Sequence record: NC_047740.1
Origin: Enterobacteria phage phiJLA23
Length of the DNA stretch: 43,017 nt
Direction: 5' to 3' (one strand)
A program made the translations under genes and the position numbers. Shown here piece by piece: positions 42 to 41,665 of this stretch. Position 1 is the stretch's first letter, and the number at the start of each line of letters is the position of its first letter. Under the pieces are notes generated by a model. That model saw only the letters and a program-made list of their open reading frames with translations, had not been told where the DNA came from and ran no database searches.

Positions 42-470
42 TCCTTAACANGAAATCAAACATAGTATTTTAATAAAACACAACAACATAGCTATAGAGA
101 GTAGTTACAAGATATACATAGTAATATATATAATAATAATAATACTCTAAACCCTTNTTATATAAGGATTTATAAATGTAACTAATGCGTATCTTCGCGT
201 AAAAAGCGTATACAATTTTCAGCGGATGAGATTGTATACATCGAGTTACATCGGTTACGCGTATATAAAATAGCACGATTTGCTAAAGACTACAGCAGAA
301 GCCTTTGCTATAGTTACTCCATCGAAACGAAACATACTGACTAAGGAATACAAAATGACTAACTTCATCAAATCAGCAATCATCGCAGCAGCAGCAATCA
401 TGACGGTAGGTTGTTCTTCTGGTCCGCGCCCTGACGGATGGTGTGCGACTCAGGCGGGTGATGTTTGCGT
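42..470. repeat. Contig wrap-around overlap, copy 1 (matches ~42305-42720)
   Basis: Near-identical ~430 bp at both contig ends; second copy is N-rich. Circular or permuted genome assembled with overlap, or a terminal repeat. Confidence 0.8.
268..332 (+). promoter_or_regulatory. Composite early promoter: palindrome TAGCA-N5-TGCTA (271-285), hairpin, -10-like TATAGT (309-314), leader CATCGAAACGAAA (320-332)
   Basis: Same ordered module recurs at 13 or more other intergenic sites; palindrome centre about 43 bp upstream of predicted start; RBS aagga and ATG at 355 follow. Confidence 0.5.
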
Positions 471-7127: not shown

Positions 7128-7150
7128 AATATTTCTCCAGTAANTCTGTT

Positions 7151-7165
7151 TAGCAATTAGTGCTA
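7151..7165 (-). promoter_or_regulatory. Isolated copy of palindrome TAGCA-N5-TGCTA at the M/L junction
   Basis: ttagcaattagtgctattt; overlaps M-like stop codon and lies about 23 nt before L start; no -10/leader module. Possible operator. Confidence 0.4.
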
Positions 7166-7166
7166 T

Positions 7167-23395: not shown

Positions 23396-23466
23396 TTCCT
23401 CGTCTAATTTCGATAAAGTAATGGTAACGCATCCTTGCGATGGATGTTTAGCAATTTGTGCTATTT
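23396..23466 (-). promoter_or_regulatory. Composite early promoter (palindrome 23449-23463, hairpin, -10-like box, leader ATCGAAATTAGAC)
   Basis: Same ordered module as 268-332. Confidence 0.45.
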
Positions 23467-24369: not shown

Positions 24370-24432
24370 TTGTTGTTGATAGGGTAATCATAGCTGACTA
24401 CCCAATTTATTGTTTAGCAATTTGTGCTATAT
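24370..24432 (-). promoter_or_regulatory. Composite early promoter (palindrome 24415-24429, TATGATTAC, leader TATCAACAACAAA)
   Basis: Palindrome also encodes the last residues and stop of the upstream gene. Confidence 0.45.
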
Positions 24433-25477: not shown

Positions 25478-25630
25478 ATGCTAAAGCCATCTGACTTGAA
25501 CTATTACGATCTAGAAACCATAGCCAAGTACAGCGGTAAGGGTTGGCCTGTTGGTGACTACTTCAAAGAAGATTTGATTGAGAGCTTCAACATCGTCCAG
25601 AAGGCAATTGCAAAAGCAGCAAAGAAATAG
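25478..25630 (+). CDS. Hypothetical small protein (50 aa)
   Basis: ATG overlaps upstream stop (TAAATG); stop TAG lies in palindrome copy 25628-25642. Confidence 0.35.
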   Translation: MLKPSDLNYYDLETIAKYSGKGWPVGDYFKEDLIESFNIVQKAIAKAAKK

Positions 25631-25688
25631 CACGAATTGCTAAAGCCCTTCGGGGCTTTTATTGTATATTCATCTCATCGAAACGAAA
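25626..25688 (+). promoter_or_regulatory. Composite early promoter (palindrome 25628-25642, terminator hairpin gcccttcggggc + T-run, TATATT, leader CATCGAAACGAAA)
   Basis: Palindrome centre about 42 bp upstream of predicted start. Confidence 0.5.
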
Positions 25689-26255: not shown

Positions 26256-26312
26256 AATAGCACTTTTTGCTAATGACACTACCCGCTTCGGCGGGTATAT
26301 TTGTTTCCATCA
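26256..26312 (+). promoter_or_regulatory. Composite early promoter (palindrome 26258-26272, hairpin acccgcttcggcgggt, TATATT, leader CCATCAAGAAGACAAAC)
   Basis: Same module; starts 2 nt after upstream stop. Confidence 0.45.
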
Positions 26313-26338: not shown

Positions 26339-26455
26339 ATGAAAAACATCTCTAAAGCAGTTGATGCGGTAATGGAACAAGTAATTAAGTTTGGTTTCTT
26401 TGGCTTCATGGGCGCAATCGCTGTTGTAGTTGGCAAATGTCTGGTTGGTCTTTAA
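26339..26455 (+). CDS. Small hydrophobic membrane peptide (38 aa)
   Basis: RBS aaggtg before ATG 26339; C-terminal FGFFGFMGAIAVVVGKCLVGL. Confidence 0.4.
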   Translation: MKNISKAVDAVMEQVIKFGFFGFMGAIAVVVGKCLVGL

Positions 26456-26517
26456 TGGCACTTTTTGCTAAAGACCTTAACAACAAAAATTGATATATTC
26501 TCTTCATCGAAACGAAA
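26454..26517 (+). promoter_or_regulatory. Composite early promoter (variant palindrome TGGCA-N5-TGCTA 26456-26470, TATATT 26494-26499, leader CATCGAAACGAAA 26505-26517)
   Basis: Same module, left arm one mismatch. Confidence 0.45.
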
Positions 26518-26537
26518 TACATTAAAAGGGCTAAAAA

Positions 26538-26717: not shown

Positions 26718-26757
26718 ATAATCAAGCCCCTTCGGGGGCATTTAGAGAGAGATGATA

Positions 26758-28341: not shown

Positions 28342-28345
28342 TTAA

Positions 28346-28681
28346 ATGTTCATCCTTGATGTGTTCAAGTTCTGCGAGAGCTACGAAAAGTTTAACAGGC
28401 AGCACCTGGCGGTATTCATTTACCGCCACAAAGAATGTGAAAGAATGGCTAAGGCAGCTGGAGTTAATGCGCGTTACTTTGCATCATCTGCGTCAAAGGA
28501 GTTTCTGGCAAGATGCATGACTGAAGGTTACATCGATGGAGTTAATGGCAGTTACTGGAGCAAAGGAAGCACGAAGCGACCATTCGGTTTTAGCTTTAGG
28601 TGCCTCGGAGGTGAGAGTGATAAGTACACCAATGAGATGATGACCATAAAAGAAATGACAGACGACCAACTGTTCGCGTAA
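28346..28681 (+). CDS. Hypothetical protein (111 aa)
   Basis: ORF 5 nt after ATPase stop; ends at bidirectional terminator. Confidence 0.5.
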   Translation: MFILDVFKFCESYEKFNRQHLAVFIYRHKECERMAKAAGVNARYFASSASKEFLARCMTEGYIDGVNGSYWSKGSTKRPFGFSFRCLGGESDKYTNEMMTIKEMTDDQLFA

Positions 28682-28685
28682 AATA

Positions 28686-28710
28686 AAGGAGCCATTAGGC
28701 TCCTTTTTTG
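28686..28710. terminator. Bidirectional terminator (hairpin ggagccattaggctcc, T6)
   Basis: Between convergent genes ending at 28681 and 28695. Confidence 0.7.
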
Positions 28711-29099
28711 TTTCCTGCGAATCTTAAAGCGAAGTAAGTTAGCAAACCTGAAACTAATCCAGCCAGAATACCCCAGACTAAAGAGTCAACCCCAGAGTTT
28801 TCAGTGCTATGAATTTCAATCTTTTCAGCTGTTATTGTGTTAGCTGAGAGACCCGTAGCAGCAGTCTTTTTATGGCTTGATGAATCTACATCTCTGTTAG
28901 TTGAGTTGCGCATATCGCTCTCTGTTGAGCTAGATTTGTCTGTCTGGCTGGATAATCCAACGCCAGTTTTCTGGTTTGACTCGCCAACCTGCGCCGTTGC
29001 CTCGACGCCATCCTTTGCTGGTAAGAAATCAGAAATGGCTGACATAGCAGAGCAGCCAGTCAGTGATGCAATTACCAGAACTACAATTCCGAGACGCAT
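28695..29099 (-). CDS. Unimolecular spanin (u-spanin, T1 gp11-type)
   Basis: N-terminal lipoprotein signal with lipobox LTGC plus C-terminal transmembrane helix LVWGILAGLVSGLLTYFAL in one polypeptide; directly after endolysin. Confidence 0.75.
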   Translation of the reverse strand: MRLGIVVLVIASLTGCSAMSAISDFLPAKDGVEATAQVGESNQKTGVGLSSQTDKSSSTESDMRNSTNRDVDSSSHKKTAATGLSANTITAEKIEIHSTENSGVDSLVWGILAGLVSGLLTYFALRFAGNKKGA

Positions 29100-29564
29100 A
29101 GCTTAATCTCCGCGTTACGCCTGTTAACCAGGCCTTTGCTAACAACTTTNTTACCACCAACGCTGATTTTATTCCATAGATAACGCCTCGCATCCTCCCC
29201 TGATATCACCACGATTTATGCGCCTTATAGCAGTTGAATTGCGCATTGCACTGGTTCCAACATTGAATGAAAAACTGTACAGCGCCGCCCTGGTGCTAAC
29301 TGGAACATTAACCTTCAGCGCTTTATCTACAGCAGCTCTATGAATTGAAAGGTGCTTCATCAGGAGTGCATCGCATTCTCTCTGGGTGTACTTTTTACCG
29401 AGAATAACATCAGGACCAGTGATTCCCTGGCAAACAGTCCACACTCCAGCAATATCTCTGTAAGGCCTGTACTTAACTCCTTCATGCTCATTCAGGAACG
29501 GAATAGCTAATGCCATGGCTCCAGCCACAGCCGAACCAATGACCTTATTCTTGAAGCTCATCAT
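29081..29564 (-). CDS. SAR endolysin (T4-lysozyme-like), frameshifted in this assembly
   Basis: N-terminal signal-anchor-release segment; catalytic spacing E..D(+9)..T(+6); annotated frame stops at 29169 but +1 frame continues to 29081 with lysozyme-like C-terminus (GLVNRRNAEIKL). Confidence 0.7.
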
Positions 29565-29776
29565 TTACTCCTGATTCTCATTGCCTCTCGAATGTCACCA
29601 TCCTCAAGTGCTTTATGGAGCGCCTTACTGTCACGCCATCGCAGCCATGCGCCAAAAATACCAAAGCATACGGCGATAACTAAGCCGATAATGCCGATGA
29701 TTGTGTTGTCAGATAAACCGCCGCCCATAGCTACTCCGCTACCGGATAAGGCGGCTGCGTCATAGAAATGCTTCAT
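29561..29776 (-). CDS. Holin (putative)
   Basis: 71 aa with hydrophobic helix and charged C-terminus; ATGA-coupled upstream of endolysin; RBS aagagg. Confidence 0.6.
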   Translation of the reverse strand: MKHFYDAAALSGSGVAMGGGLSDNTIIGIIGLVIAVCFGIFGAWLRWRDSKALHKALEDGDIREAMRIRSK

Positions 29777-29806
29777 GTTGCGGCCTCTTTAAGTTGATTT
29801 GATTAA

Positions 29807-29866
29807 ATAATACCAGATATTAAACTTTGACATAAACGAAAAAAGGCAGCCTTAAAGGCCGCCTGT
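29807..29866 (-). promoter_or_regulatory. Terminator hairpin (29845-29865, T6) followed by TATTAT -10-like box (29807-29812) upstream of lysis cassette
   Basis: aggcggcc-ttta-aggctgcc then tttttt; -10-like hexamer; RBS; holin ATG. Confidence 0.45.
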
Positions 29867-29884
29867 TTTCAAGTTGATGTTTCT

Positions 29885-30064
29885 TATAAGTTAGTCTGCG
29901 ATAATGAATTCCACCAATTCTCCATCAATCGGGGTGAAGATCCAAGTCATGTCATCTCCATAAATCTTGTAATTACCATCCCCCTGGTACTCACCACTGT
30001 AAGGGTTGTTTACAGTGAAAGGCAGTGATTTTGATTTGTTGCTAACGCAGAATAATTTAGTCAT
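29885..30064 (-). CDS. Hypothetical small protein (59 aa)
   Basis: ORF filling the gap between 30077 and the terminator; below ORF-track cut-off. Confidence 0.35.
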
Positions 30065-30076
30065 TTTGATAATCTC

Positions 30077-30265
30077 TTAACGGTTTACGCAAATAAGTGT
30101 GTTTACATTAATTGGGAAGCAGTTACCGCCCATGGTCTTAATCATTACGAACGTACAGCTAGGGTAATACTCAAGGCTTGTGGCCTTAACTTTTTGCCGT
30201 TGGCAATTTGAGAACAAAACCTCATCACCCACCTTTACCATATCAGCTTTAATTGTTTGCAACAT
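30077..30265 (-). CDS. Hypothetical protein (62 aa)
   Basis: ORF coupled to upstream gene. Confidence 0.5.
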   Translation of the reverse strand: MLQTIKADMVKVGDEVLFSNCQRQKVKATSLEYYPSCTFVMIKTMGGNCFPINVNTLICVNR

Positions 30266-30450
30266 TAACGCTCTCCAAGTGCCGCAAGGATTGCATAAGC
30301 GATCTCACGTGCATTCTTAGCAGTAAGGTTAATAGTGTCAACCTTTACATCTTCTTCGCTAGTTCCGTAAGCCTGTGCAATCCGAAATGTCTTACCAAAA
30401 CCAACATCTTTAACTTCAATCTGTGCATCTGATTGTGTGAACTTAGCCAT
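30265..30450 (-). CDS. Hypothetical protein (61 aa)
   Basis: Preceded by composite promoter with leader CATCAAAACAAAAC and RBS gagagga. Confidence 0.5.
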   Translation of the reverse strand: MAKFTQSDAQIEVKDVGFGKTFRIAQAYGTSEEDVKVDTINLTAKNAREIAYAILAALGER

Positions 30451-30451
30451 C

Positions 30452-30520
30452 TTTGTATCCTCTCGTTTTGTTTTGATGGAGTAAATATACCCCCTCTTTT
30501 NATTTGTNTTTTANTTNGTG
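30452..30520 (-). promoter_or_regulatory. Composite early promoter (TATATTTAC, leader CATCAAAACAAAAC; palindrome degraded by Ns)
   Basis: Module order conserved; upstream half-site region contains Ns. Confidence 0.35.
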
Positions 30521-30843
30521 CTAGTTCNTGTNTNCNTTNTNNNTNNNNTTTCTAGCGTATTCATCATCTCCTCAAGCTTCTCTGCATCAATAGAGGACTT
30601 AACCCATTGCAACTTCACATTGCCATCATTATCAACAAGGCTAGATACACCTTTAACCATGTAGCCCTGAGGAATTAGGTTACTCACATCGCGACCGTGA
30701 CCATCCCCAGCCTTAGCCAACTTGCTGCGACGCAGCTCTACGTTACGAATATTCATACCGTACTTCTCTGCGATTGCCTTGTTAGTCATACCGTTAGCCA
30801 GTTCTTGCTTTAACTCTTCGTTGGTGATTTTAGCTATAGACAT
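30511..30843 (-). CDS. Putative HTH DNA-binding protein (3' end uncertain, runs into N-run)
   Basis: N-terminal helix-turn-helix-like segment TNKAIAEKYGMNIRNVELRRSKL; ORF passes through Ns 30490-30550. Confidence 0.45.
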   Translation of the reverse strand: MSIAKITNEELKQELANGMTNKAIAEKYGMNIRNVELRRSKLAKAGDGHGRDVSNLIPQGYMVKGVSSLVDNDGNVKLQWVKSSIDAEKLEEMMNTLEXXXXXXTXTSXX

Positions 30844-30931
30844 TATTTAATTTCCTGTTAGCAGATTATGAAGTACATGATTATAAAGGTTAATGGCATA
30901 GCCATCAACGGTAGTAATGTTTTCATCTGAA

Positions 30932-31000
30932 TCGTCTCTCGTTTCGATGAACACACTATACGCCATCCATGGCGATGTGTTTTAACAAAAAGTGCTATTT
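30932..31000 (-). promoter_or_regulatory. Composite early promoter (variant palindrome TAACA-N5-TGCTA 30983-30997, hairpin cgccatccatggcg, TATAGTGTG, leader CATCGAAACGAGAGACG)
   Basis: Same module; about 100-nt leader before the HTH gene. Confidence 0.45.
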
Positions 31001-31252
31001 AACTTCTTTTAGCCAGTAATCAAGAAACTCAGTTTCAAGCGCAGCAATTGCTGGAGAATACTCACTAGGCATCATCATATTGCAGCCAGGTGAGTAGTAC
31101 ATCAACTCAGCCTTACCAATCTCAATTTGCACCAGTACATCGAGGTAGTCCGGAGGAATCCACTCAGAGAAAGGAATCTTCCGATAAGGCTTCTCACCAA
31201 AAAACACAACCTGATACTTACTCTCATCAAAATCCAGACCAGGTAAATTCAT
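30995..31252 (-). CDS. Hypothetical protein (85 aa)
   Basis: ORF; stop TAG inside the palindrome copy. Confidence 0.5.
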   Translation of the reverse strand: MNLPGLDFDESKYQVVFFGEKPYRKIPFSEWIPPDYLDVLVQIEIGKAELMYYSPGCNMMMPSEYSPAIAALETEFLDYWLKEVK

Positions 31253-31488
31253 TTCTTCGCACCTTTCTTAAATATCTTCTTACCTTCCTCACGATACATT
31301 GCGAGGCTAGGCGTTGCTGGAACTCTTACATACTTGCGTGGCCGCTGGTTCATATAACTAAACTTCCCATTGAAAACTACAGATATGTCATCAATATCAA
31401 AGTATTTACCTATCATCTTGATGTCATCCTGCAATCCCGCCTCTCCACAATGCGCCCATACAGCGGCGCGTCCGGTTTCAACTATCAT
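31249..31488 (-). CDS. Hypothetical protein (79 aa)
   Basis: ATG 31488 overlaps upstream small ORF stop (ATGA); ORF track starts at 31533. Confidence 0.45.
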   Translation of the reverse strand: MIVETGRAAVWAHCGEAGLQDDIKMIGKYFDIDDISVVFNGKFSYMNQRPRKYVRVPATPSLAMYREEGKKIFKKGAKK

Positions 31489-31610
31489 AGGCCGTAAGCC
31501 ATTTTTAAAGCTTCTCGAGCGCAAATCCAGCAATATTCAGATCCAGTCTTAACTGCGTCATTTGCGAAAGACTGCGCAATCTCGAACATCTCTTTGTCTA
31601 TAATTTTCAT
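31485..31610 (-). CDS. Hypothetical small protein (41 aa, CxxC)
   Basis: First ORF after composite promoter 31612-31686; RBS gaggg 7 nt before ATG 31610. Confidence 0.35.
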   Translation of the reverse strand: MKIIDKEMFEIAQSFANDAVKTGSEYCWICAREALKMAYGL

Positions 31611-31611
31611 C

Positions 31612-31686
31612 TCTTAACCCTCTCATTTGCTGATGTAATTAATATAATCCATCCTTGTATTTTAGTTTTAACAAAAAGTGCTATTT
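31612..31686 (-). promoter_or_regulatory. Composite early promoter (variant palindrome 31669-31683, TATATTAATTAC, leader CATCAGCAAATGAGAG)
   Basis: Same module; palindrome overlaps upstream stop. Confidence 0.4.
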
Positions 31687-32297
31687 ACTCATAAACAAGA
31701 AAACTTACATGCTTACCTTTCGCATCATTACACCCGTAGTACCCATCAAATTCATTATGTAACTTCCATGCAAATCCGTCATCGCTAACTATTTCAACCT
31801 GGTCATTAATCGGGTCAAGTTTGAATTCATACTCATTGAGCAGGGTGAATGAGCCGTTCGTCATTACGCAAGTCGCAGTAATCATGAAAAAATCCTCCGG
31901 GCAATCTTTCTTCATTTCTTCGATATCAGCAATCATTCGGTCNNNCCATGTTTCGATATCAGTGTTCAGATAACCCNCTTCTNAACTATTTAAACCNGTT
32001 CATTAATCGGGTCAAGTTTGAATTCATACTCATTGAGCAGGGTGAATGAGCCGTTCGTCATTACGCAAGTCGCAGTAATCATGAAAAATCCTCCGGGCAA
32101 TCTTTCTTCATTTCTTCGATATCAGCAATCATTCGGTCGCGCCATGTTTCGATATCAGTGTTCAGATAATCCTCTTCGAAACTATAATCAAGACACCAAG
32201 CTAAATCCCAAACATCATTTTTATATCCAGCTTTACTCAACTCCTGCGCCACCATTGCCTGAAAGAGTTCCCATTGCTTATCAAAGGTTAATTTCAT
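31685..32297 (-). CDS. Hypothetical acidic protein (about 155 aa in the true genome; interrupted by an artifactual ~198-bp tandem duplication)
   Basis: ORFs 32079-32297 and 31685-31936 share ...RMIADIEEMKKDCPEDF; copies differ by homopolymer length and Ns at the junction. Confidence 0.45.
31786..32181. repeat. Tandem ~198-bp duplication with N-rich junction (probable assembly artifact)
   Basis: Unit 31786-31983 repeats at 31984-32181; Ns at 31943-31997; A6 versus A5 run between copies. Confidence 0.7.
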
Positions 32298-32491
32298 TAT
32301 TCTGACACCTCATCAAATTTTTCGCCGAATGCGTTTTTAACAGTCTCTAAATCATCTTTGTATGTTGGGCTAACTTCGAATGAGTAACCGTCTCCATCAT
32401 CAAGAATATAACCCTCAGGGGTGATTGCTAATTCATATTCATAACCAGTTTTGCGTGACTTGTACAGCTTTTCAGTGTAGATAGTAGTCAT
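32297..32491 (-). CDS. Hypothetical acidic protein (64 aa)
   Basis: ATG 32491 after composite promoter and RBS gagagag; ORF track extends to 32611 through the promoter. Confidence 0.45.
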   Translation of the reverse strand: MTTIYTEKLYKSRKTGYEYELAITPEGYILDDGDGYSFEVSPTYKDDLETVKNAFGEKFDEVSE

Positions 32492-32504
32492 TTTGTTTCT
32501 CTCT

Positions 32505-32568
32505 CTTCGTTTCGATGAAGTAACTATATCGCATCCTTGCGAAATCTCTTTAGCAATTCGTGCTATTT
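32505..32568 (-). promoter_or_regulatory. Composite early promoter (palindrome 32551-32565, hairpin atcgcaaggatgcgat, TATAGTTAC, leader CATCGAAACGAAG)
   Basis: Palindrome centre about 42 bp upstream of predicted start; also encodes ...STNC-stop of VRR-NUC gene. Confidence 0.5.
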
Positions 32569-32939
32569 GATAGATAATCTGTAATTGCCAACTTAAACAT
32601 TTCAAACCCATAACAGATTGCTGCGTAACCTCCTGTTTCTGATACCTTTTCCAGGAACTCCTTTTGCTCCTTTGAAACCTTGCTATCTGATTTTATTGCT
32701 CGCTTAAGCTCTATTGCGGCAAAGCCATTTGGTCCAATCAGTAGAATATCTGATACACCCTTAATTACTCCCTCCTGCTTGTCCTTCATTGCTGTGCCGA
32801 TAGACTTGAGACCTTCATTCTTCACGTGAAAAGCAAATATCTCTGGATGGTTGTGGCGAACCCAAGCTATTGAATTTATTTGGTGAACAACCTCTTTAGC
32901 CTTGTCCGTGCTTGTTTTGTCGTGAAAAACCTTAACCAT
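32550..32939 (-). CDS. VRR-NUC domain nuclease
   Basis: 129 aa with VRR-NUC-like motifs (GxPD-type SDILLIGPNG, AIELK); coupled to helicase gene (stop/start overlap at 32939). Confidence 0.65.
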   Translation of the reverse strand: MVKVFHDKTSTDKAKEVVHQINSIAWVRHNHPEIFAFHVKNEGLKSIGTAMKDKQEGVIKGVSDILLIGPNGFAAIELKRAIKSDSKVSKEQKEFLEKVSETGGYAAICYGFEMFKLAITDYLSNSTNC

Positions 32940-34882
32940 TAGAACTCCTTATTAGCAATATTATCGCCACCTTTAGCGGTCTTGCGGTGAGTTACCCTCT
33001 TAGGGGCATGGATGTACTGCGCATACTCCATAATCTTGCGAGCATTGCGATATGCAGCCATATATCGCTTAGCGTTCATGTCGACTACGTGACCTTTAAT
33101 TCCATTGTTCAACCAGAGCGTTTTACATACTCGATGGCCAGACTCTACAAAGAAAACCTCATGAGCTTTGAATGTCCCACCCATGCCATCATCAAGGATG
33201 TAGTTGTAGATGATTCCTGATTGGTTCTTTGTTAGCCCAACCTTAAAGTCAACAACATCAAACCAGTCGTTCTTGCGGTAATGTTTGCCGCTTAAGTTGA
33301 GATTTGGATCAAGCAAAGTGCAATCGCAACCCCTACAAATCTTAGCTGCAACGTCATTCTGAACTCCACAGCCTTTAACGATAACCTTTCCGGTTCGTGG
33401 GTCTTTCTGGTCTTCACATGTGCGACTAACCCAGAAATATTCGCAGCGATTATTATTCTCATCAATATGCATGCAACGTCGAGCAAAGAAGCTGTTCTCT
33501 GTTCCGCATACTGGACACTGCTTAGTCTCCTTGCCATTACTCTTTCGTAGCTGATATTGAGCCTGCTCAAGAATTGGATTGAAGTACAATGATGCCATAG
33601 AGTCCATCGTTCCTGCGAAGTCCAGTACCAAATGGTCATTCTTTACCATTCCTTTATCTTCATGGAGCTTCTTAAGCTTACGCATTCCTCGACCAAGTAG
33701 CTGAACCAGGAGCGTAAGGCTACCGATCTTACGCAGAATAACGCTTGTATCCCATGTAGGCACATTTACGCCAGTGGTTAGCGCCTGAACCTGAAAGCAA
33801 TATTTAATCTCCCCGCTAAAGCACTTATCAAGCAACTCCTTGCGCTGCTTCTCGCCAGTCTTTCCAGTTATAATGCAGAACTTTTCACCTTCAGGAAGGT
33901 AACTTGCGGCTTCGTGGCAATGGCGCTCACCTGCGCATGTTACCAGAACTCCATTCCTGTCTTTCGCGGCAAGCCATACTTTCTTCATTATCTCCGCTGT
34001 CATTGTTCCAGATGCCTGAATCTTTTTATCCATGGCTTCAAGCTGGGCTTTAGTGTAATCCTGAACACCATCTTCAGATGATGCATCAAACTCTGACAGG
34101 TCGTAACCAACGCCATCAGTAGCACCAAAGTTTGTCGGAACCACGGAACCGAACTCTACCAGGTAGTTTGTATCGATATTTGTGACCGTCTCACGCCAAA
34201 ATCCCAACTCCTTTTTGTTTTCAACAACTATTGGCGTAGTTCCACGGAAAGGAGAACCAGTCAGTCCAAAGATACGAAGATTCTTGCCATACTTAGCACG
34301 GCAGCGCTCCATTAAAGTCAGGATGATGACCGTATACTGGCTACGCCCCTTATCTGATGCCTGTTGCGCAGTCTCATTGTTATCAATTGCCTCCGCTATG
34401 TCCTGGTCATCAATATGGTGACACTCATCAATAGCAACTACCGCAGGACAGAAATCGCCAAGTGACTTCTTAAGCCCGCCAACTACTGTGCCCTCAGAGC
34501 CAACCACCACAGGGAAATAAGATGATTTTATTCCAAGCCCAGAGCAATAAATGGAGTTAGGAACCCCGTAATCAGAAATCTCAGAAGCATTCTGGCTAAC
34601 CAGCTCTGCCTGACGAGCAAGAACAAGCATAGGCAAGCCAAGCTCAGAGCAACGCTTAGCAACCATACCAAAAACCAGAGTCTTACCAGCAGAAACTGAA
34701 GCCATTGCGATAAATGGATGCTCATAGCGACTAATGCGCTTTGCAATCTCATTGTACATAACACACTGATAGCTATACGGAACCATACAGTTAGAAGAGG
34801 TGAATTTAGTTTGAATCTCTTTAATCTTATCTTCGCCCAATTCTTCAATCTGTTTTTGTATTGTTTTCAATCGGTTTTCCAT
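32939..34882 (-). CDS. SF2 (DExH-box) DNA helicase with C-terminal zinc ribbon
   Basis: Walker A ASVSAGKT, DExH box VAIDECHH, Cys cluster CPVCG...CMHIDENNNRCEYFW; start at ATG 34882 (MENRLK) by promoter spacing and RBS. Confidence 0.8.
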   Translation of the reverse strand: MENRLKTIQKQIEELGEDKIKEIQTKFTSSNCMVPYSYQCVMYNEIAKRISRYEHPFIAMASVSAGKTLVFGMVAKRCSELGLPMLVLARQAELVSQNASEISDYGVPNSIYCSGLGIKSSYFPVVVGSEGTVVGGLKKSLGDFCPAVVAIDECHHIDDQDIAEAIDNNETAQQASDKGRSQYTVIILTLMERCRAKYGKNLRIFGLTGSPFRGTTPIVVENKKELGFWRETVTNIDTNYLVEFGSVVPTNFGATDGVGYDLSEFDASSEDGVQDYTKAQLEAMDKKIQASGTMTAEIMKKVWLAAKDRNGVLVTCAGERHCHEAASYLPEGEKFCIITGKTGEKQRKELLDKCFSGEIKYCFQVQALTTGVNVPTWDTSVILRKIGSLTLLVQLLGRGMRKLKKLHEDKGMVKNDHLVLDFAGTMDSMASLYFNPILEQAQYQLRKSNGKETKQCPVCGTENSFFARRCMHIDENNNRCEYFWVSRTCEDQKDPRTGKVIVKGCGVQNDVAAKICRGCDCTLLDPNLNLSGKHYRKNDWFDVVDFKVGLTKNQSGIIYNYILDDGMGGTFKAHEVFFVESGHRVCKTLWLNNGIKGHVVDMNAKRYMAAYRNARKIMEYAQYIHAPKRVTHRKTAKGGDNIANKEF

Positions 34883-34896
34883 AATATCAAATGCCT

Positions 34897-34966
34897 TTAA
34901 TGTTCGTTCGATTGACGATATAATAACAGCCATATAAACCAATGTTTAACAAAAAGTGCTATTGAG
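34897..34966 (-). promoter_or_regulatory. Composite early promoter for helicase operon (variant palindrome TAACA-N5-TGCTA 34947-34961, leader CAATCGAACGAAC); in divergent region abutting HTH gene RBS
   Basis: Palindrome ends 6 nt before the RBS gaggtgag of the plus-strand HTH gene while at about -42 of the helicase promoter. Confidence 0.5.
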
Positions 34967-34974
34967 GTGAGAAA

Positions 34975-35448
34975 ATGGATTCAATTGACAAGCGTACTCT
35001 TAATGGTAACAACGGAACAATTCGCACAGAAGACAAGAAGCCGCGTAAGCGTCCATCAGGTTACTATGTACTAAAGGATGAAGTGAGAGCGGGATTAAGG
35101 GCGCGCCTTGAGATTGTATTGGACTTCTACGGCAGCAAGGCCAATCTAGCTAAGCAGCTAAAGGTTACGCGCCAGGCTGTAGAAGAATGGTGTAAGCGGG
35201 GAATGATTTCAGCTCGCGGCGCACAGCTTGCGCATAATCGATATAAGCGAACTGGCGAGGGGTTCAGGGCTACATTCTGCCGACCTGATTTACAGTTCGA
35301 CGGTAACGGCAAGCCTCTAACACTGCGATGCAAGAAGCGTCAGATGCTTCGAGTTGTTACAGAAGCTGAGTTAGCAACCAAGCCGCAGCGTAAATCATGG
35401 CGAAAGGTTAAGAAAGAAAGAGAAGAAGCACGAAAAGCTAAAGAGTAA
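34975..35448 (+). CDS. Putative HTH transcriptional regulator (Cro/YdaS-like)
   Basis: HTH-like segment SKANLAKQLKVTRQAVEEWCKRG; basic C-terminus; RBS gaggtgag; terminator 35454-35485 follows. Confidence 0.6.
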   Translation: MDSIDKRTLNGNNGTIRTEDKKPRKRPSGYYVLKDEVRAGLRARLEIVLDFYGSKANLAKQLKVTRQAVEEWCKRGMISARGAQLAHNRYKRTGEGFRATFCRPDLQFDGNGKPLTLRCKKRQMLRVVTEAELATKPQRKSWRKVKKEREEARKAKE

Positions 35449-35453
35449 AAATT

Positions 35454-35485
35454 AAGGTTGTGCCATAATCGGTACAACCTTTTTA
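35454..35485 (+). terminator. Rho-independent terminator (stem aaggttgt/acaacctt + T-run)
   Basis: 8-bp stem, T5 tract, after HTH gene stop. Confidence 0.6.
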
Positions 35486-35500
35486 TTGGATTAAATAAAA

Positions 35501-36424
35501 ATGAATTACGACAAGAATGAAGTAATACCTAAAATGGCTGGATTGTGGAAATCATTTTATGCAAAGGAGCTTGGTTGGAATGATAGACACCTTAGCAAGA
35601 AGCACGGGCCGTGCCCTTATTGCTTTGGTACTGACAGATTCAGGTTTACAGACGAAATAGGAAGCGAAAAAGGTAATGGGGCCGCAGTTTGCTCTAAGTG
35701 CGGCAGTGACTCAGGAATAGGCTGGGTTATGAAATGTTCCGGCCTTAGATTTGTGGAAGCTATAAATTTACTTGGCGACTGGCTTAATTTGACTCCCGTC
35801 GAAATCATAGTGAAGGCAAACAAAGCAGCGAGCCGAGTTCAGAGATATAACTTTGGCGCTCAGGCATCCATTGAATCAATCGAGAAGGTAATCTCTCGCA
35901 CCAAGTCTGTAGAAATGACACAGCTTACGAGATTTGAAGCAATTATTACTGAACGGGAATACAAAATAGGAATAAAGGGGTCTGGAGAAGAAATTATAGC
36001 CGAGCAATGCTTTATGGTTTACGAGGATGGTTTATCAGATGAGCCTTGTAACGTAAAGTTTATAGATGAAGAGGGTAATGAGTCATATCTCGCAAAAGAC
36101 TACACTCGCGGCTCGGTTGTTCCGGTAAGTAAATGTAGTGATGGCGCTATCTACCTCACTGTTGGCTGGATTAACGCACTACATGTATCGGCATGCACAA
36201 AAAGGACAACTTACGACTGCCTAACTCACCACAACTTAGAAATGGTTGCTTATGAACTCAGGAATAAAGAGTGCAGGATAGCTTGCTTAGCTGATGAAAA
36301 GGAGTCGCTTTATGTTGCTGATGATAGAGGTCTAAAAGTCGTAATACCTAAAGGTGGCAATTTCAAGATGGGGCTTGAAAGAAGGTTATATAACCCGCAA
36401 GATCTGATAGATAAGCATTCATAG
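35501..36424 (+). CDS. Putative DNA primase (zinc-binding N-terminus)
   Basis: Cys motif CPYCFG...CSKCGS typical of primase zinc-binding domains; adjacent to helicase/regulator. Confidence 0.5.
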   Translation: MNYDKNEVIPKMAGLWKSFYAKELGWNDRHLSKKHGPCPYCFGTDRFRFTDEIGSEKGNGAAVCSKCGSDSGIGWVMKCSGLRFVEAINLLGDWLNLTPVEIIVKANKAASRVQRYNFGAQASIESIEKVISRTKSVEMTQLTRFEAIITEREYKIGIKGSGEEIIAEQCFMVYEDGLSDEPCNVKFIDEEGNESYLAKDYTRGSVVPVSKCSDGAIYLTVGWINALHVSACTKRTTYDCLTHHNLEMVAYELRNKECRIACLADEKESLYVADDRGLKVVIPKGGNFKMGLERRLYNPQDLIDKHS

Positions 36425-36429
36425 CAATC

Positions 36430-36473
36430 ACCCTCTTCGGAGGGTTTTTTATTGCATTTAATCTGATACAATA
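36430..36473 (+). promoter_or_regulatory. Terminator hairpin (ccctcttcggaggg 36431-36444, T6) followed by TACAAT -10-like box (36467-36472) upstream of lateral tail fibre gene
   Basis: Same hairpin-then-TACAAT layout as upstream of small terminase. Confidence 0.5.
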
Positions 36474-36502
36474 GGTTTCATCTATCAAATAGGAGAAATA
36501 AC

Positions 36503-39220
36503 ATGGCAATTTATGACGCTGGAACTGCATCGCTTGCAGCTGACGGAACTGTAACTGGTGTTGGCACCACGTGGAGGCAACCACTAACGCTAATCCGAGT
36601 TGGCGCAACAATGATTTTTAACACCACCCCGACAAGCATTGTTACTATCGCTGAGATTTTAAGCGATACAGAGATTCGTGTATTCAATGATAAAGGTTTT
36701 ACTGCGCCAGCTGGGACTCAGTACTCAATCCTTGCTCATGACGGAATTACTGTCCAAGGTCTTGCTCAGGACGTTGCTGAGACACTTCGTTATTATCAGT
36801 CCCGTGAAACAGAGGTTGCAGCGGCAGTTGATGCTTTTAATCAATTTGATTCTGATTCTTTCCAGCAAAGCGTAAATAATGTCAACATGCAATCTCAGCA
36901 AGTTGCTGTTGATGCTGCTCAAGTTTCTTCTGACAAAGATCAGGTATCTTCTGATAGGCAGTTAGCTGAAAGTAGCGCTAACTCGGCTTCCTCTTCAGCT
37001 ACAATAGCAAGCTCTGCTGCGGCTTCTGTGTCATCTGCTCTTGTAGTTGATTTCTCAAATGGTGGAGAAATAAACTCAAGAACTCAGCCTGCAATTTACT
37101 TTAATGACAATCATGTTTCGGTTTATTACTGGTCTGGTAGCGTTCCAAAATCCATACCACAAAACTCATCACCACAGTCTACAGGTGGTATTGGAGTTGG
37201 TTTTTGGATTCAACAGGATTACACAAGAAGGTTTGAATCAGTATCAGCAATGACAAACTCTGCCAGAATTTATGACTTAGAGGTTGTCTATTGTGATTCT
37301 TACATTGGTGGTCTTGGTTATGGTGGTGGGTTCTTTGTTTGTAAGCCGGAGTCATCTTTATCATATGGATTATCTTCAGGATTGGTTTTTGAATCAAGTA
37401 CAGGTTATTACTGGGAAAGAATCTGTAGCGGGGAGCTGTCGCCTTGCGAACTTGGGGCCATTAAGTCATCGACATCAGACTCAACGACACAGATACAGCA
37501 AATCCTAGACTCCGGGCTGGCATTAAAGCTTGATAGCGACTACATGGCATCAAACCTGGTAATGAGAAATAAATCTTGCTCTATAATTGGTTTTGGCAAG
37601 CACAAGTCAAGAATAACTCAGCTTAGTTCATCAATTGGCTCTTTAATTGAGGTTTCTGATTCTTGCTCGCTCATTCATATTGAAGGTATTGCTCTTTACG
37701 GCACTGGAGCCCAGCAAGACACGGCGTTTACTGATGGTACTGCTGGGATTTACATCCCTACGCCGACTGGGTTATCAACCAATTACCCATTCAACACTGG
37801 TGCTGACCCTAGGAGGGACTTAACGATAAGAAACACTCACATTGCTGGGTTTGATGTTTACGGAATTTTCGTTGCTGCTGGTAACTACTCTCCTGTTCTT
37901 GATGATGTTCTTATTCAGCACATAAAAAAAGACGGATTGATTAACGAAACAACAGACTTCACATGGAATAACATACAGGTAAACACCTGTGGAAGAAATT
38001 GTCTAATACTTAGGAATGCCGGAAACTGTAGGATTGTTGGCGGTAAGTTTATTTGGTCGGGTTGGTCGGCTTATAATGAGCTTGATGATGCTTATGGCAT
38101 CCTGATTGATAACTGCCAAAACATCACCATGTCAGCTATAGAGGCGCAGGATTGCGGTGGTGACGGTGTTAGAATTGTAAACTCTAGAAATGTGGTATTT
38201 AATGGATTAAATAGTAACAGGAACAGCATAAACTCAAACTACAGAGATTATAACGTTTCGTTTTCAAATAGCTCTGTAAGAATCTATGGTTTTGTTGGGC
38301 TTAACTATGTATCTAACAATGGCGATGGAAGGCCAACTTCCGCTGGCAACTTCAGATTCCTTGACTCAAGATCTGATGTTGTGATCGATGGGGTTGTTGA
38401 ATCTGGTTACTTTGGCCCAAATTTCTCAGGGGACACTAACTATGTTGCTGAGTATTCAGGAAACCTGAAGATAAACGGACTGATAGACAAAAGGAAGACA
38501 AGAATTAAGCCAGCAAACGACACTTCAGCTTTTGATGGGGTCTCTAATACACCAGTATTCGCCGCAGCGGCATCATCAGTTGGGCAGCAATATTGGCTAA
38601 GGCTTTCACAGGCAAATAAAGATAAGATTATATGCACTGGATTTGACCCGTCACTAGGTTTCACCGCTACATGCAATATATCGCCGACCATAACTGTTGC
38701 TGAAGACTTTAACCTTATAGCTATAGGGACTGGTTTTGGAGTTAATAGTAATGCTCTTTACTTGCAGTATAACGTGATGGCATCAGGAGAACACAGTGTC
38801 TCATTGTTAATATCAGCATCAGGTGAAACAAGAGTTTTATCAGGTGTGTTGCCAGTCTCATCAAGAATGGTCAATGGTGGTACTTACAATATTGCTCTTG
38901 GTTTTGATGTATCTGGTAAGGTTTGGTGGAGCATCTTAAACCTGAATACTGGATTTAGAGTTAGAAGGTCATTTGATTCTCAGTATATAGATATTGATGT
39001 CAGACCTATACTAACAACAGCTGGTAACTATGTAACCATGTATTCAGGTCAAGGCGCTGGTGATGTAGCTTGCTCTGGATATGGCTTTGGTGTTTACGTT
39101 GGCAGCTATTCAGATGAGTCTGATTATTGCGCTTCAAGATACTATTCGCTTAAAGGTGGTGTTGATTTGACAAAACAATCAGTATTTTTGAGTTTGAATG
39201 GTGATGTAACGTCACAATAA
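36503..39220 (+). CDS. Lateral tail fibre / tailspike-like protein (predicted beta-helix, possible glycan-binding or depolymerase domain)
   Basis: 905 aa; conserved-looking N-terminal anchor, Ser/Ala-rich linker, long Asn/Gly/Ser-rich repetitive region typical of beta-helix fibres; RBS aggag. Confidence 0.7.
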   Translation: MAIYDAGTASLAADGTVTGVGTTWRQPLTLIRVGATMIFNTTPTSIVTIAEILSDTEIRVFNDKGFTAPAGTQYSILAHDGITVQGLAQDVAETLRYYQSRETEVAAAVDAFNQFDSDSFQQSVNNVNMQSQQVAVDAAQVSSDKDQVSSDRQLAESSANSASSSATIASSAAASVSSALVVDFSNGGEINSRTQPAIYFNDNHVSVYYWSGSVPKSIPQNSSPQSTGGIGVGFWIQQDYTRRFESVSAMTNSARIYDLEVVYCDSYIGGLGYGGGFFVCKPESSLSYGLSSGLVFESSTGYYWERICSGELSPCELGAIKSSTSDSTTQIQQILDSGLALKLDSDYMASNLVMRNKSCSIIGFGKHKSRITQLSSSIGSLIEVSDSCSLIHIEGIALYGTGAQQDTAFTDGTAGIYIPTPTGLSTNYPFNTGADPRRDLTIRNTHIAGFDVYGIFVAAGNYSPVLDDVLIQHIKKDGLINETTDFTWNNIQVNTCGRNCLILRNAGNCRIVGGKFIWSGWSAYNELDDAYGILIDNCQNITMSAIEAQDCGGDGVRIVNSRNVVFNGLNSNRNSINSNYRDYNVSFSNSSVRIYGFVGLNYVSNNGDGRPTSAGNFRFLDSRSDVVIDGVVESGYFGPNFSGDTNYVAEYSGNLKINGLIDKRKTRIKPANDTSAFDGVSNTPVFAAAASSVGQQYWLRLSQANKDKIICTGFDPSLGFTATCNISPTITVAEDFNLIAIGTGFGVNSNALYLQYNVMASGEHSVSLLISASGETRVLSGVLPVSSRMVNGGTYNIALGFDVSGKVWWSILNLNTGFRVRRSFDSQYIDIDVRPILTTAGNYVTMYSGQGAGDVACSGYGFGVYVGSYSDESDYCASRYYSLKGGVDLTKQSVFLSLNGDVTSQ

Positions 39221-39246
39221 AAAAGCCCCGAAAGGGGCTTTATCTT
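39221..39246. terminator. Bidirectional terminator (hairpin gccccgaaaggggc 39227-39240)
   Basis: Identical hairpin to 1571-1584; A-run upstream, T-rich downstream, between convergent genes. Confidence 0.7.
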
Positions 39247-39251
39247 TTGCA

Positions 39252-39680
39252 TTAAAACGGAATATCATCTTCATCACTAAATCGGCTTTGTTGCTGCGGC
39301 TGCTGTCTCTGTTGCTGTTGAGCTTGTTGTCGCTGCTGCTGCTGTTCTGATTCACCTCCTCGCTGACTAAACATCAATCGAGGATTCTGCAACTCAAGCG
39401 TAATATATGTCTTGCCATTATGTTCGCGCTCATTAACCGCTAATGAATCGCCGCTCACAGAGATAACTTTTCCTTCCTGAAATGCTTCGTCATACCAGCT
39501 AATTTGCGCCTCGCTAGCAAAGAAGGTAGCTCGATAATTACTATACTTACGCTCTCCATCTCGTGTTTTATAAGATTCGCTCATTTCGATAGCGTACATC
39601 TTCCAGTTACCCTTGGCGTTCTGACCATCTTTACTGAACAGCGTCTTACCAACCATATCTAAGAATTTGTCCCAATTCAT
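39252..39680 (-). CDS. Single-stranded DNA-binding protein (SSB)
   Basis: OB-fold-like N-terminus, Gln-rich linker, canonical acidic C-terminal tail ending DEDDIPF. Confidence 0.8.
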   Translation of the reverse strand: MNWDKFLDMVGKTLFSKDGQNAKGNWKMYAIEMSESYKTRDGERKYSNYRATFFASEAQISWYDEAFQEGKVISVSGDSLAVNEREHNGKTYITLELQNPRLMFSQRGGESEQQQQRQQAQQQQRQQPQQQSRFSDEDDIPF

Positions 39681-39721
39681 TTCATATCTCGTTTGATTTT
39701 GGGGCCGAAGCCCCGTTTAGT

Positions 39722-40369
39722 TTAGAACTGCTCGATTGATTGTGATTCTACTACTTCATTCGTTGCGTTTGCAACTTTTTTAGCGACTTCCTTTGGCTTA
39801 GCTGGGTTGAAGCCACTTGCGGAAGCCATTTTGATCTCTGCTTGTTTATCTATTATCGCTTTCTCTACTATACCCCACGTTGCCGTGTCAGCTTGTGATT
39901 TGCATGATTTGTAGATTTCGATAAGCTCTTCTCGAGTTTCTGCCTTCTCAATATCGCGCTTCCAGTCCTTGACGCTCTTAACTGCCATCTGCGCATCATC
40001 GTCAGACTGACTAATTCCCAAAGCCGCCGCTAGTGAGTAACGCCGAGCGTATGTAAATGCAGATCCTACTCCTTGCGGGTCTTTCTTAACTATTGGCATA
40101 ATCATGAAGAAGCTAACCCACTCGCCAGAAACGTGATAGAGAGTCGTCTCTACGTTAAGATTGTCAGTAGTTGATGTTTCTAACATGCTCTGCATAATCA
40201 TTAAGTCGTTATCATCAAGTGCTGGGATTACAGCCTCCAGCATGGAATCAAGTGTTGCGTATCTATTCTTTAGGTGACTGTTCTGCTTGTCTCTTGCCGC
40301 CTTCGCAAATCCTGTGCGAGCTTTAAATAGTGCCTGTAAAACTGTTTTGTTACTCTCTGAAGTCTTCAT
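39722..40369 (-). CDS. Erf-family single-strand annealing protein
   Basis: Motif GVGSAFTYARRYSLAAALGISQSDDD characteristic of the Erf family; adjacent to exonuclease and SSB. Confidence 0.7.
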   Translation of the reverse strand: MKTSESNKTVLQALFKARTGFAKAARDKQNSHLKNRYATLDSMLEAVIPALDDNDLMIMQSMLETSTTDNLNVETTLYHVSGEWVSFFMIMPIVKKDPQGVGSAFTYARRYSLAAALGISQSDDDAQMAVKSVKDWKRDIEKAETREELIEIYKSCKSQADTATWGIVEKAIIDKQAEIKMASASGFNPAKPKEVAKKVANATNEVVESQSIEQF

Positions 40370-40380
40370 TTCTATCTCTC

Positions 40381-40445
40381 TTTGTTGTCGATGAGGTAAC
40401 TATACCCCATCAATTTAATACCGTTTTAGCTATTCGTGCTATCTT
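40381..40445 (-). promoter_or_regulatory. Composite early promoter (variant palindrome TAGCA-N5-AGCTA 40427-40441, TATAGTTAC, leader CATCGACAACAAA)
   Basis: Same module; palindrome encodes ...STNS-stop of exonuclease gene. Confidence 0.45.
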
Positions 40446-41394
40446 CGTACTTCTTCATCTCATACTCAGGAACTTGCAGTTCCATCTCTGTTTCGCCAAA
40501 TCCGTAACCAGGCCAAATATCAAGTTTCTTGCATTGCTTGTATGTGGATAGGGCGCTCATGTATTGCAATCTACCAACCTTTAAGTGCTCTTTTGTTATC
40601 GTGTAGCACATTGGAAGGAATGGGCTTTTCTTTTCCTGGCAAAGAAGCTGAACAACAACTCGACGCTTCTCATTAAAGGCGCGAACAAACAAATCATGCT
40701 GAAGCGCCATTTTTAGCAAGTAACCATGCTTGAAGGCCAATCTCCCAAATCCAGATGGAGATGCGTCGCTAGTCGTCTTGTAGTCACGGATATAAACTAC
40801 ATCATCAACGACATCGACATGGTCAAGACGAACCTTAACGCCGCACTCGTTAATCTCACCGAAGATTGATAACTCTCGCTGAGCGGTTTTACTGTTCACT
40901 ATCGCATTGTATGCAGGAATGCCACACAGCACCTCTCGCATCGCATGTACTGTGTCAAAGTCTTTAGCTGATACAATCTCGCGACCGTTCGCTTTAACCT
41001 CGTTAGAGCGCTGAATATCCCACCATACGTTAAGTGATTCACCGCTCAGCGCCAGAATCTCCATTAATTCTGGATAATCCTTACCAGATGTTCCAGCAAT
41101 ACCCATCGACTTCAACCGAGTTGCCAAAGCAGTCTTGCTAGTAATCAGATCATCAAACTCTTCTTGCGCTGGCTGGCGATAGTAAGTCGCATCGAATACA
41201 GAGTTTTCAAGAATAACCGTGTGGGCTAATGTACCGAACTTTAAAGCCTTATTGCTATCATCATGCTCTGCAAACTTATAAGCAGCGGGGCAAGTTGAGA
41301 AGATGTGAGCCAGACCAGAGCCAGACACATGGTCTGACTCCTTGTGGTAGGCTTCGTTGGTTAACTCGTCGCTAGTGTAAACCTTGAAGCTCAT
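40426..41394 (-). CDS. PD-(D/E)xK-family recombination exonuclease (lambda Exo/YqaJ-like candidate)
   Basis: 322 aa with DxK-containing motif VVYIRDYKTT; adjacent to Erf and SSB. Confidence 0.6.
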   Translation of the reverse strand: MSFKVYTSDELTNEAYHKESDHVSGSGLAHIFSTCPAAYKFAEHDDSNKALKFGTLAHTVILENSVFDATYYRQPAQEEFDDLITSKTALATRLKSMGIAGTSGKDYPELMEILALSGESLNVWWDIQRSNEVKANGREIVSAKDFDTVHAMREVLCGIPAYNAIVNSKTAQRELSIFGEINECGVKVRLDHVDVVDDVVYIRDYKTTSDASPSGFGRLAFKHGYLLKMALQHDLFVRAFNEKRRVVVQLLCQEKKSPFLPMCYTITKEHLKVGRLQYMSALSTYKQCKKLDIWPGYGFGETEMELQVPEYEMKKYEDSTNS

Positions 41395-41397
41395 AAT

Positions 41398-41592
41398 TTA
41401 TTCCTTCACCTTAATAATCTTCATTACTGAACCAAGCTCCTCATCTGTCACGTGGGCGTATTCAATAGCTTCCTGCTTTGTATCAAATCTTGCCGCCTCT
41501 GATTTATTGCTTGTGTAACCTGAGCCATCTACACAGTAGTAACATGTGCCGAAAATAGGATTGTTTCGCTCTTGAATAATGAAGTATGCCAT
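41398..41592 (-). CDS. Hypothetical protein (64 aa, CxxC)
   Basis: ORF coupled to exonuclease gene; leader ACACAAACAAAGAGAGATATAGAA. Confidence 0.5.
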   Translation of the reverse strand: MAYFIIQERNNPIFGTCYYCVDGSGYTSNKSEAARFDTKQEAIEYAHVTDEELGSVMKIIKVKE

Positions 41593-41665
41593 TTCTATAT
41601 CTCTCTTTGTTTGTGTGGTTTAACTATGCCATCCGTGGCTAATTTTATCCAATTGGTTTTGCCTA

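Follow-up and report, generated by a model that had tools for sequence, protein, structure and literature searches.

A repeated directional promoter element of a T1-like phage matches the marbox consensus and lies between a helicase operon and a divergent Cro-like gene

The window analyzed here is the whole 43 017-nt record of Enterobacteria phage phiJLA23 (NC_047740.1), in which a helicase gene on the minus strand and the gene for a 157-amino-acid (aa) helix-turn-helix (HTH) protein on the plus strand diverge from a shared control region. A preliminary description of this DNA had placed a palindrome, TAACA-N5-TGCTA, at 34947-34961 in that region, and had set it at activator position for the helicase operon and at operator position for the HTH gene, with the HTH protein as the leading candidate for recognizing the whole motif family. 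We found that this sequence (TAACAAAAAGTGCTA) makes up the core of a 20-bp directional element, ATAGCACTTTTTGTTAAACA at 34943-34962 on the minus strand, which recurs in at least 12 copies in the window and which we regard with high confidence as a promoter element centered at about -41. The element matches the consensus of the marbox, the binding site of MarA, SoxS and Rob, and we lean toward host proteins of this type as the activators of the promoters that carry it. Over the 3.6 kb around the site, identity is 100% to Escherichia phage C119 and 99.5-99.8% to phiKP26, Rogue1, AHP24 and relatives; to judge by this similarity, the window is nearly the whole genome of a C119/Rogue1-like T1-type phage (Drexlerviridae, Rogunavirus), a virulent siphovirus.

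The features of the control region are collected in Table 1. The helicase gene does run divergently on the minus strand, and ATG 34975 does begin the open reading frame (ORF) of the 157-aa protein (34975-35448), as described earlier. The helicase most likely starts at ATG 34882, the start given in AHP24, about 75 nt from the motif and thus placed like the start codons behind other copies. Starts at TTG 34942 or ATG 34933 (C119 RefSeq) are probably wrong, both being inside the promoter. The 3' end of the element, TAAACA, doubles as a weak -35 (4/6) of the helicase promoter. On the opposite strand, a perfect TATAAT (34919-34924, plus) overlaps the helicase TATTAT (34925-34920, minus) by 5 bp, and the divergent starts predicted from them, 34931 and 34913, are 18 bp apart, the commonest spacing between starts of bacterial bidirectional promoters (PMC12825309). 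A plus-strand promoter is found at the same place as TTGAAT-17-TATAAT in T1 and as TTGTCA-16-TATAAT in Klebsiella phage Sweeny, and the overlapping -10 hexamers are conserved in C119-like phages, T1 and Sweeny. The statement that the palindrome lies ~42 bp upstream of the helicase leader start is correct for the predicted start at ~34913, from which the repeat center, 34954, is at about -41. Its end had also been put 6 nt before the ribosome-binding site of the HTH gene; the Shine-Dalgarno GAGG in fact starts at 34964, only 2 nt past the repeat.

Table 1. Repeat copies and control-region features in the window
Feature	Position	Strand	Basis or remark
Imperfect repeat (4/5) TAACA-N5-TGCTA, 'palindrome' of the preliminary description	34947..34961	.	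Core of the 20-bp element
Marbox-like site, 20 bp, ATAGCACTTTTTGTTAAACA; GCAC = recognition element 1, TAAA = recognition element 2	34943..34962	-	0 mismatches to AYNGCACNNWNNRYYAAAY; 16.3 bits
Helicase-operon -10, TATTAT, 17 bp past the marbox; predicted start ~34913	34920..34925	-
Initial transcribed leader (predicted) CAATCGAACGAAC, local version of (T)CATCGAAACGAA	34902..34914	-	Alignment of 12 copies
Helicase gene (ResIII/Helicase_C), ATG 34882; first gene of the operon, followed by the VRR-NUC gene	32939..34882	-	Pfam; AHP24 annotation
Sigma-70-type promoter of the HTH gene, TTTAAT-17-TATAAT; predicted start ~34931	34896..34924	+	Annotated in AHP24
Shine-Dalgarno GAGGTG of the HTH gene	34964..34969	+
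157-aa Cro/YdaS-like HTH protein, Drexlerviridae core gene	34975..35448	+
Intrinsic terminator after the HTH gene	35454..35481	+	Annotated in AHP24 too
Family copy ATAGCACGATTTGCTAAAGA, 19 bp, TATAGT; serves lipoprotein/membrane-protein genes	270..289	+
Family copy ATAGCACTAATTGCTAAACA, tail-gene region	7147..7166	-	Core 15-mer identical to the ChIP-derived matrix consensus
Family copy ATAGCACAAATTGCTAAACA	23445..23464	-	Alignment, consensus and matrix match
Family copy ATAGCACAAATTGCTAAACA	24411..24430	-	Alignment, consensus and matrix match
Family copy, terminator hairpin 25642-25659 inside the spacer ahead of the -10	25627..25646	+
Family copy ATAGCACTTTTTGCTAATGA, terminator hairpin 26280-26297 ahead of the -10	26257..26276	+
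Family copy ATGGCACTTTTTGCTAAAGA	26455..26474	+
Family copy ATAGCACTTTTTGTTAAAAC, upstream of the 377-aa protein gene	30979..30998	-
Family copy ATAGCACTTTTTGTTAAAAC	31665..31684	-
Family copy ATAGCACGAATTGCTAAAGA, overlapping the VRR-NUC gene stop codon	32547..32566	-
Family copy ATAGCACGAATAGCTAAAAC, upstream of the Erf recombinase gene	40423..40442	-

The motif family is far above chance in the window. The pattern TAACANNNNNTGCTA, with at most one mismatch, has 18 strand-matches against 3.96 expected, and the directional form TAGCACNNNTTGYTA has 12 against 0.65 expected. When aligned, all 12 oriented copies have the same layout. They begin with A-TAGCAC-nnW-TTG(C/T)TA-AA (general form ATAGCACnnWTTGYTAAAnn), of which GCAC is the most conserved part; a variable spacer of about 18 bp (17-19), often with a small GC hairpin, leads to a TATAGT, TATATT or TATTAT hexamer; and about 6 bp past the hexamer comes the leader (T)CATCGAAACGAA, followed by a ribosome-binding site and ATG. 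Every one of the 12 points at a gene on its own strand, with the start codon 70-80 nt from the start of the motif. The leader, which would be transcribed as about +1 to +13, accompanies most window copies (e.g. 32514-32502, 30945-30933 and 34914-34902) as well as copies in T1 and in the 'Vibrio' phage Vc1, and could set the context of the start site or act as a signal for RNA stability or for translation. Small GC or terminator-like hairpins lie in the spacer between box and -10 at 25642-25659, 26280-26297, 32529-32542 and 30961-30974, and the stop codon of the upstream gene often falls within the box, as the TAG of ATAGCAC or the TAA of CTAAA, so that one short segment combines a gene end, a terminator and the next promoter.

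The repeat itself has been published and is not new; the new point is its agreement with the marbox. A 21-nt direct repeat, aaATAGCACnnnTTGnTAAAA, was described when phage TLS was re-annotated in 2024; its 21 copies run in the direction of transcription, ~76 nt upstream of start codons, and the authors noted the same repeat in T1, Rtp and Rogue1 (PMC11447400). They found only three sigma-70-like promoters in TLS and left the function of the repeat open, with a stoperator, an enhancer-binding site and a UP element as options (PMC11447400). When viral contigs were scanned with the motif, multi-copy loci were seen on contigs of 45-53 kb and single matches elsewhere. Shigella phage Sf11, considered as a case of the motif without the regulator, was set aside, as it is not a member of the Drexlerviridae.

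The sequence reported as a palindrome is real, but its symmetry is imperfect, with the arms TAACA and TGCTA pairing at four of five positions; the family consensus of the core is TAGCA-N5-TGCTA. Every oriented copy has C at position 7 and T at position 11, a non-complementary pair, and AA(A) as its 3' flank; with all copies pointing at genes on their own strand, the element is a directional promoter module and not a true palindrome. Comparison across the copies further shows that G4 is fixed but C14 varies between C and T, and that the AAA of the 3' flank has no TTT counterpart.

An asymmetric site of this kind is known from the host. The marbox/soxbox consensus, AYNGCACNNWNNRYYAAAYN, describes the degenerate asymmetric site of MarA, SoxS and Rob, monomeric activators with two HTH motifs (PMC2064960, PMC3709825), and the helicase-side copy (34944-34962, minus) fits the published consensus AYNGCACNNWNNRYYAAAY with no mismatch. 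With at most one mismatch to AYNGCACNNWNNRYYAAAYN, we found 14 sites in the window (0.78 expected), 21 in T1 (1.06 expected), 14 in Sweeny (0.87 expected) and five in Vc1 (20 kb; 0.56 expected), while lambda, the negative control, had none (0.97 expected). We also built a matrix from 87 MarA, SoxS, Rob and RamA sites mapped by chromatin immunoprecipitation sequencing (ChIP-seq; Table 1 of PMC10268841). The window site at 7149 reads exactly as the matrix consensus, GCACTAATTGCTAAA. At 16.3 bits, the copy at 34943-34962 scores at least as high as 92% of the 87 mapped sites, and the ten top matches in the window are all family copies, each scoring at least as high as 92-100% of the genuine sites. 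Matches of at least 13.9 bits number 18 in the window and 0.74 in shuffled sequence. Some phage 15-mers are identical to mapped sites (e.g. GCACAAATTGCTAAA on pSLT) and others are one base off (e.g. GCACGATTTGCTAAA versus CCACGATTTGCTAAA at marR<>marC). These comparisons suggest that the element is an optimal marbox of the high-affinity type, to which binding is predicted.

The surroundings of the box follow a known promoter class as well. In class II marbox promoters the box is in forward orientation and overlaps the -35 region at about -41, and the -35 hexamer is missing (PMC12052159, PMC6900184, PMC8811837, PMC10268841). Across three genomes, the 20-bp box is exactly 18 bp from a -10-like hexamer in 25 of 40 sites and 17-19 bp away in 31 of 40, and such a hexamer lies 17-19 bp downstream of 17 of the 22 matrix matches in T1 and of 16 of the 17 in Sweeny. 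All 12 window copies read GCAC (distal) to TAAA (proximal) toward the -10 and the gene, and relative to the starts predicted from the -10 hexamers the box center is at about -40 to -41, the spacing being 17 bp at the helicase copy. Apart from TAAACA at that copy, the -35 position has at most 3/6 matches to TTGACA in most copies, whereas the -10 hexamers have 4-6/6. Sigma-70-like sites are not enriched in 23100-43017, with 35 found and 39.9 expected. Two other promoter readings were tried and rejected. TTGCTA as a -35 would stand 22 bp away from the conserved -10, with no conserved hexamer at the 17-bp distance; a sigma-54 promoter is at odds with the N3 rather than N5 spacing, with AG in place of GG in 11 of 12 copies and with a sigma-70-type -10 hexamer 22 bp past TGCTA.

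How the two arms of the control region would affect each other can be judged from a host example. At PacrA/acrR, activation of one arm by SoxS or MarA represses the divergent regulator gene through competition for RNA polymerase, and the bound activator is itself no block to elongation (PMC12825309). In the phage, the box would lie at about +12 to +31 of the plausible HTH-gene promoter and at about -41 of the helicase promoter, so the positions behind the proposed combination of activator site and operator stand. The proposed operator effect on the HTH gene is plausible too, but by analogy it would more likely arise because polymerases compete for the shared -10 than because a roadblock stands at +12 to +31.

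No gene for a MarA-type activator was found in the phage. In tblastn searches of the window with MarA, SoxS and Rob (the MarA query validated by a 95% match to a Salmonella fragment), nothing scored better than E ~1, and no T1-like genome was among the matches listed when phage records were compared with MarA. Pfam detected no AraC-type domain in the helicase, the VRR-NUC protein, the primase, the 157-aa protein or 20 small ORFs, the last yielding only a Rha domain and a weak GerE match. The marbox match and the lack of a detected phage homologue of MarA, SoxS or Rob therefore make a host activator the simplest reading, and we consider it somewhat better than an even chance that host MarA/SoxS/Rob-type proteins activate these promoters and that the region is a bidirectional promoter region. 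Under this reading, a MarA/SoxS/Rob-type protein (RamA in Klebsiella) would bind the box as a monomer with its two HTH motifs, substitute for the missing -35 contact and recruit sigma-70 RNA polymerase; we infer Rob as a constitutive candidate and MarA, SoxS and RamA as inducible ones. The helicase arm would be one copy of the characteristic Drexlerviridae promoter, driving the minus-strand operon, and the plus-strand arm an ordinary TATAAT promoter for the Cro-like gene. Overlapping -10 hexamers would allow polymerase to engage in only one direction at a time, and activation toward the helicase would lower transcription of the Cro-like gene by polymerase competition.

Several points weigh against host activators. 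The phage copies are more uniform than host marboxes, and A3 is invariant in them though free in the marbox consensus; this uniformity could reflect an additional or different reader. The starts at all these promoters are predictions from -10 hexamers alone. Unstressed cells contain little MarA or SoxS, Rob has been reported to be largely sequestered, and for a fast virulent phage it looks risky to depend on such activators. Our literature search found no link of rob, marA, soxS or marboxes to T1-like phages, a silence that could mean either that the link is absent or that nobody has looked. One relative that carries the element, Vc1, is labelled a Vibrio phage, whose host would have to possess a MarA-family factor. 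Finally, good sigma-70 promoters are few and one of them belongs to the HTH gene, as would also suit an early phage-encoded activator.

Such a phage-encoded reader might be a non-AraC protein other than the Cro-like one, either a small ORF product or a 377-aa protein with an N-terminal GerE/LuxR-like HTH and a metallophosphoesterase, but we regard this as unlikely. It would fit the uniformity of the copies, and the HTH helix of the 377-aa protein is conserved in C119-like phages, T1 and Vc1 (M-x-I/V-R-x-V-E-x-R-x-x-K-L-A). LuxR-type activators commonly work from about -42. However, the GerE match of the protein is weak (E 0.038, 14 bits), its gene is itself behind a family promoter (30979-30998), and in the window it is apparently truncated to 110 aa (30511-30843), yet the promoter family is intact. 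Any reader of this sort also leaves the exact optimum of the host marbox and the class II spacing unexplained. As to the record itself, the truncation at 30511-30843 adjoins N bases, and the 377-aa protein is intact in AHP24, T1 and Vc1.

The 157-aa protein belongs to PHROG 2856 and is encoded by a core gene found in 829 phage records. An all-alpha Cro fold with an HTH is supported, in line with the Cro/YdaS-like assignment given to it before, although its Pfam score is sub-threshold (24.3 bits against cut-offs of 30.2 and 30; P22_Cro and YdaS families, PF14549 / PF15943); some of its homologues have precomputed PF14549 or PF15943 matches. When 30 diverse homologues are aligned, variability peaks in the recognition helix (residues 66-72), with a mean entropy of 2.30 bits and 13 residue types at position 66, compared with 0.72 bits for the N-terminal arm and 0.94 bits for the C-terminal domain. 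The arm, which is predicted to be disordered (DKRTxNGNNGTxRGxDKKxRKRP, residues 5-25), and a C-terminal segment (GFRAxFCRPDLxFDxNGK, residues 96-120) are near-invariant, and their presence beside a hypervariable HTH suggests that the protein has a conserved partner, one that is not a fixed DNA sequence. We saw no convincing inverted repeat, as an operator covarying with the recognition helix, in the intergenic regions of C119-like phages, T1, Sweeny and Vc1.

It has been proposed that this protein reads the motif family, and in its fullest form the idea is that the Cro-like protein, produced early under a sigma-70 promoter of its own, sits on the element as a dimer and from -41 switches on the helicase promoter and every other promoter of the family, while repressing its own gene. 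Its gene adjoins a copy of the site divergently, an arrangement kept in all lineages examined; its HTH fold is genuine and its gene is core; and its promoter is good and activator-independent, while sigma-70-like promoters are otherwise not enriched (three in TLS). The same DNA element is nevertheless present in the C119-like, T1, Klebsiella and 'Vibrio' phages despite helices such as RQAVEEW, NQTVQGW and CVRLTNAY, and because the helix varies while the motif stays constant, the 157-aa HTH is probably not the reader. The element is moreover asymmetric at the positions given above, and only by chance would a dimer site fall on the MarA/SoxS/Rob matrix optimum over 15 positions. We therefore hold this reading to be distinctly improbable.

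The same low probability attaches to the idea that no activator takes part and that polymerase itself recognizes the element, as a UP-like or some unusual upstream sequence. UP elements are among the options raised by the TLS authors (PMC11447400), and the helicase copy, with TAAACA, has a 4/6 -35 at 17-bp spacing. The element is not A/T-tract-like, its most conserved part being GCAC; most copies have three or fewer matches to TTGACA at the -35 position; and TTGCTA is too far from the -10 for a -35. That the repeats are stoperators or roadblocks silencing transcription, as in mycobacteriophage L5 and as the TLS paper also considered, agrees with their intergenic and co-directional placement but is highly improbable, given that the fixed 17-19 bp to a -10 hexamer, the conserved leader and the start codon point to promoter elements, and that the phage is virulent with no known repressor.

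Marbox-like sites outside the common layout were also seen. A perfect match to the marbox consensus (ATGGCACAAATGGTTAAAC, 5000-5018, minus) covers the opening codons of the large tail protein in its longest ORF call; an ATG ~40 nt downstream is probably where that protein really starts. The spacing from this match to a -10 is an atypical 15 bp, and T1 carries a box at the corresponding position (25021). Two high-scoring boxes in the structural region of T1 (15068-15086 and 18832-18850, minus) oppose the direction of the surrounding genes and could be antisense promoters or reverse-orientation (class I-like) sites. Another marbox-like site, GCACGAAAAGCTAAA (14.8 bits), occupies the last codons of the HTH gene, with CATAAT 19 bp on in the loop of the terminator hairpin (35425-35469). 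It may serve the primase gene as a promoter; T1 and Sweeny showed no corresponding matrix match.

By its motif positions, the window maps onto almost the entire circularly permuted genome, reversed relative to the C119 record and ~4 kb shorter, and the HNH endonuclease genes of C119 were not found in it. The order helicase, 157-aa regulator, primase is conserved across the lineages examined. A tandem duplication of ~197 nt at 31787-32185, with copies 93-97% identical, flanks an N-containing stretch and repeats portions of two small ORFs; compared with C119 and AHP24, it could be a genuine variant or an artefact of assembly. A gene for a Rha-family regulatory protein lies at 41666-42079 on the minus strand (Pfam Phage_pRha, 5.9e-08); it has no counterpart annotated in T1 and is therefore not a core regulator.

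T1-like phages rely on host RNA polymerase throughout infection, almost no ordinary promoters are detectable in their genomes, and the 21-nt repeat is an admitted puzzle, for which a class II marbox would give a testable mechanism. We judge the chances evenly balanced that the Drexlerviridae as a whole (>800 genomes, from phages of E. coli, Shigella, Salmonella, Klebsiella and relatives) drive most of their early, replication and recombination units from optimal class II marboxes and hence depend on MarA, SoxS, Rob or RamA. If so, phage development would be coupled to the stress or multidrug-resistance state of the host, strains over-expressing MarA or RamA could be better hosts, and the Cro-like gene on the opposite arm would report an 'activator absent' state. 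A large phage family, including many Klebsiella phages studied for therapy as well as TLS, would thereby be linked to regulators of clinical multidrug resistance. The receptor of TLS, TolC, belongs to the mar regulon. The phages would also be a source of compact, strong, activator-dependent promoters.

Each part of the system has known counterparts. The closest known counterparts of the 157-aa protein are Xfaso1 Cro and P22 Cro, of the all-alpha Cro type, and the YdaS family. It differs from them in its length of 157 aa, in an N-terminal arm that is basic and invariant, in a conserved C-terminal domain without a match among solved structures, in falling below Pfam gathering scores and in coming from a virulent phage with no repressor partner. 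The likeness of TAGCAC-N3-TTGCTA to the -24/-12 elements of sigma-54 promoters (TGGCAC-N5-TTGCW) is superficial; one copy reads TGGCAC (26456), but sigma-54 elements have a spacing 2 bp longer and an invariant GG, where the phage has AG in nearly all copies. The TLS 21-nt repeat, on the other hand, is this very element, alike in orientation rule and in distance to start codons, and its publication made no connection to the marbox or to a -10 hexamer at fixed spacing.

For the divergent region as a whole, PacrA/acrR of E. coli, where SoxS, MarA and Rob activate in the acrAB direction, is the nearest parallel. Both have a regulator gene divergent from a marbox-bearing operon, overlapping -10 hexamers, ~18 bp between the starts (predicted ones in the phage) and an expected competition between the arms. 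They differ in that the acrAB marbox is at a class I position and the phage box at a class II position, and in that AcrR is a TetR-family autorepressor with a known operator, whereas the Cro-like protein has no assigned target. [quoted passage not shown] In contrast to these host promoters, the virulent phage genomes have 12-21 near-identical copies per 43-50 kb, and the phage boxes, where host-factor binding is a prediction, are much nearer the consensus than most host sites. The phage promoters also carry a conserved leader, predicted to be transcribed, and often a terminator hairpin within the spacer.

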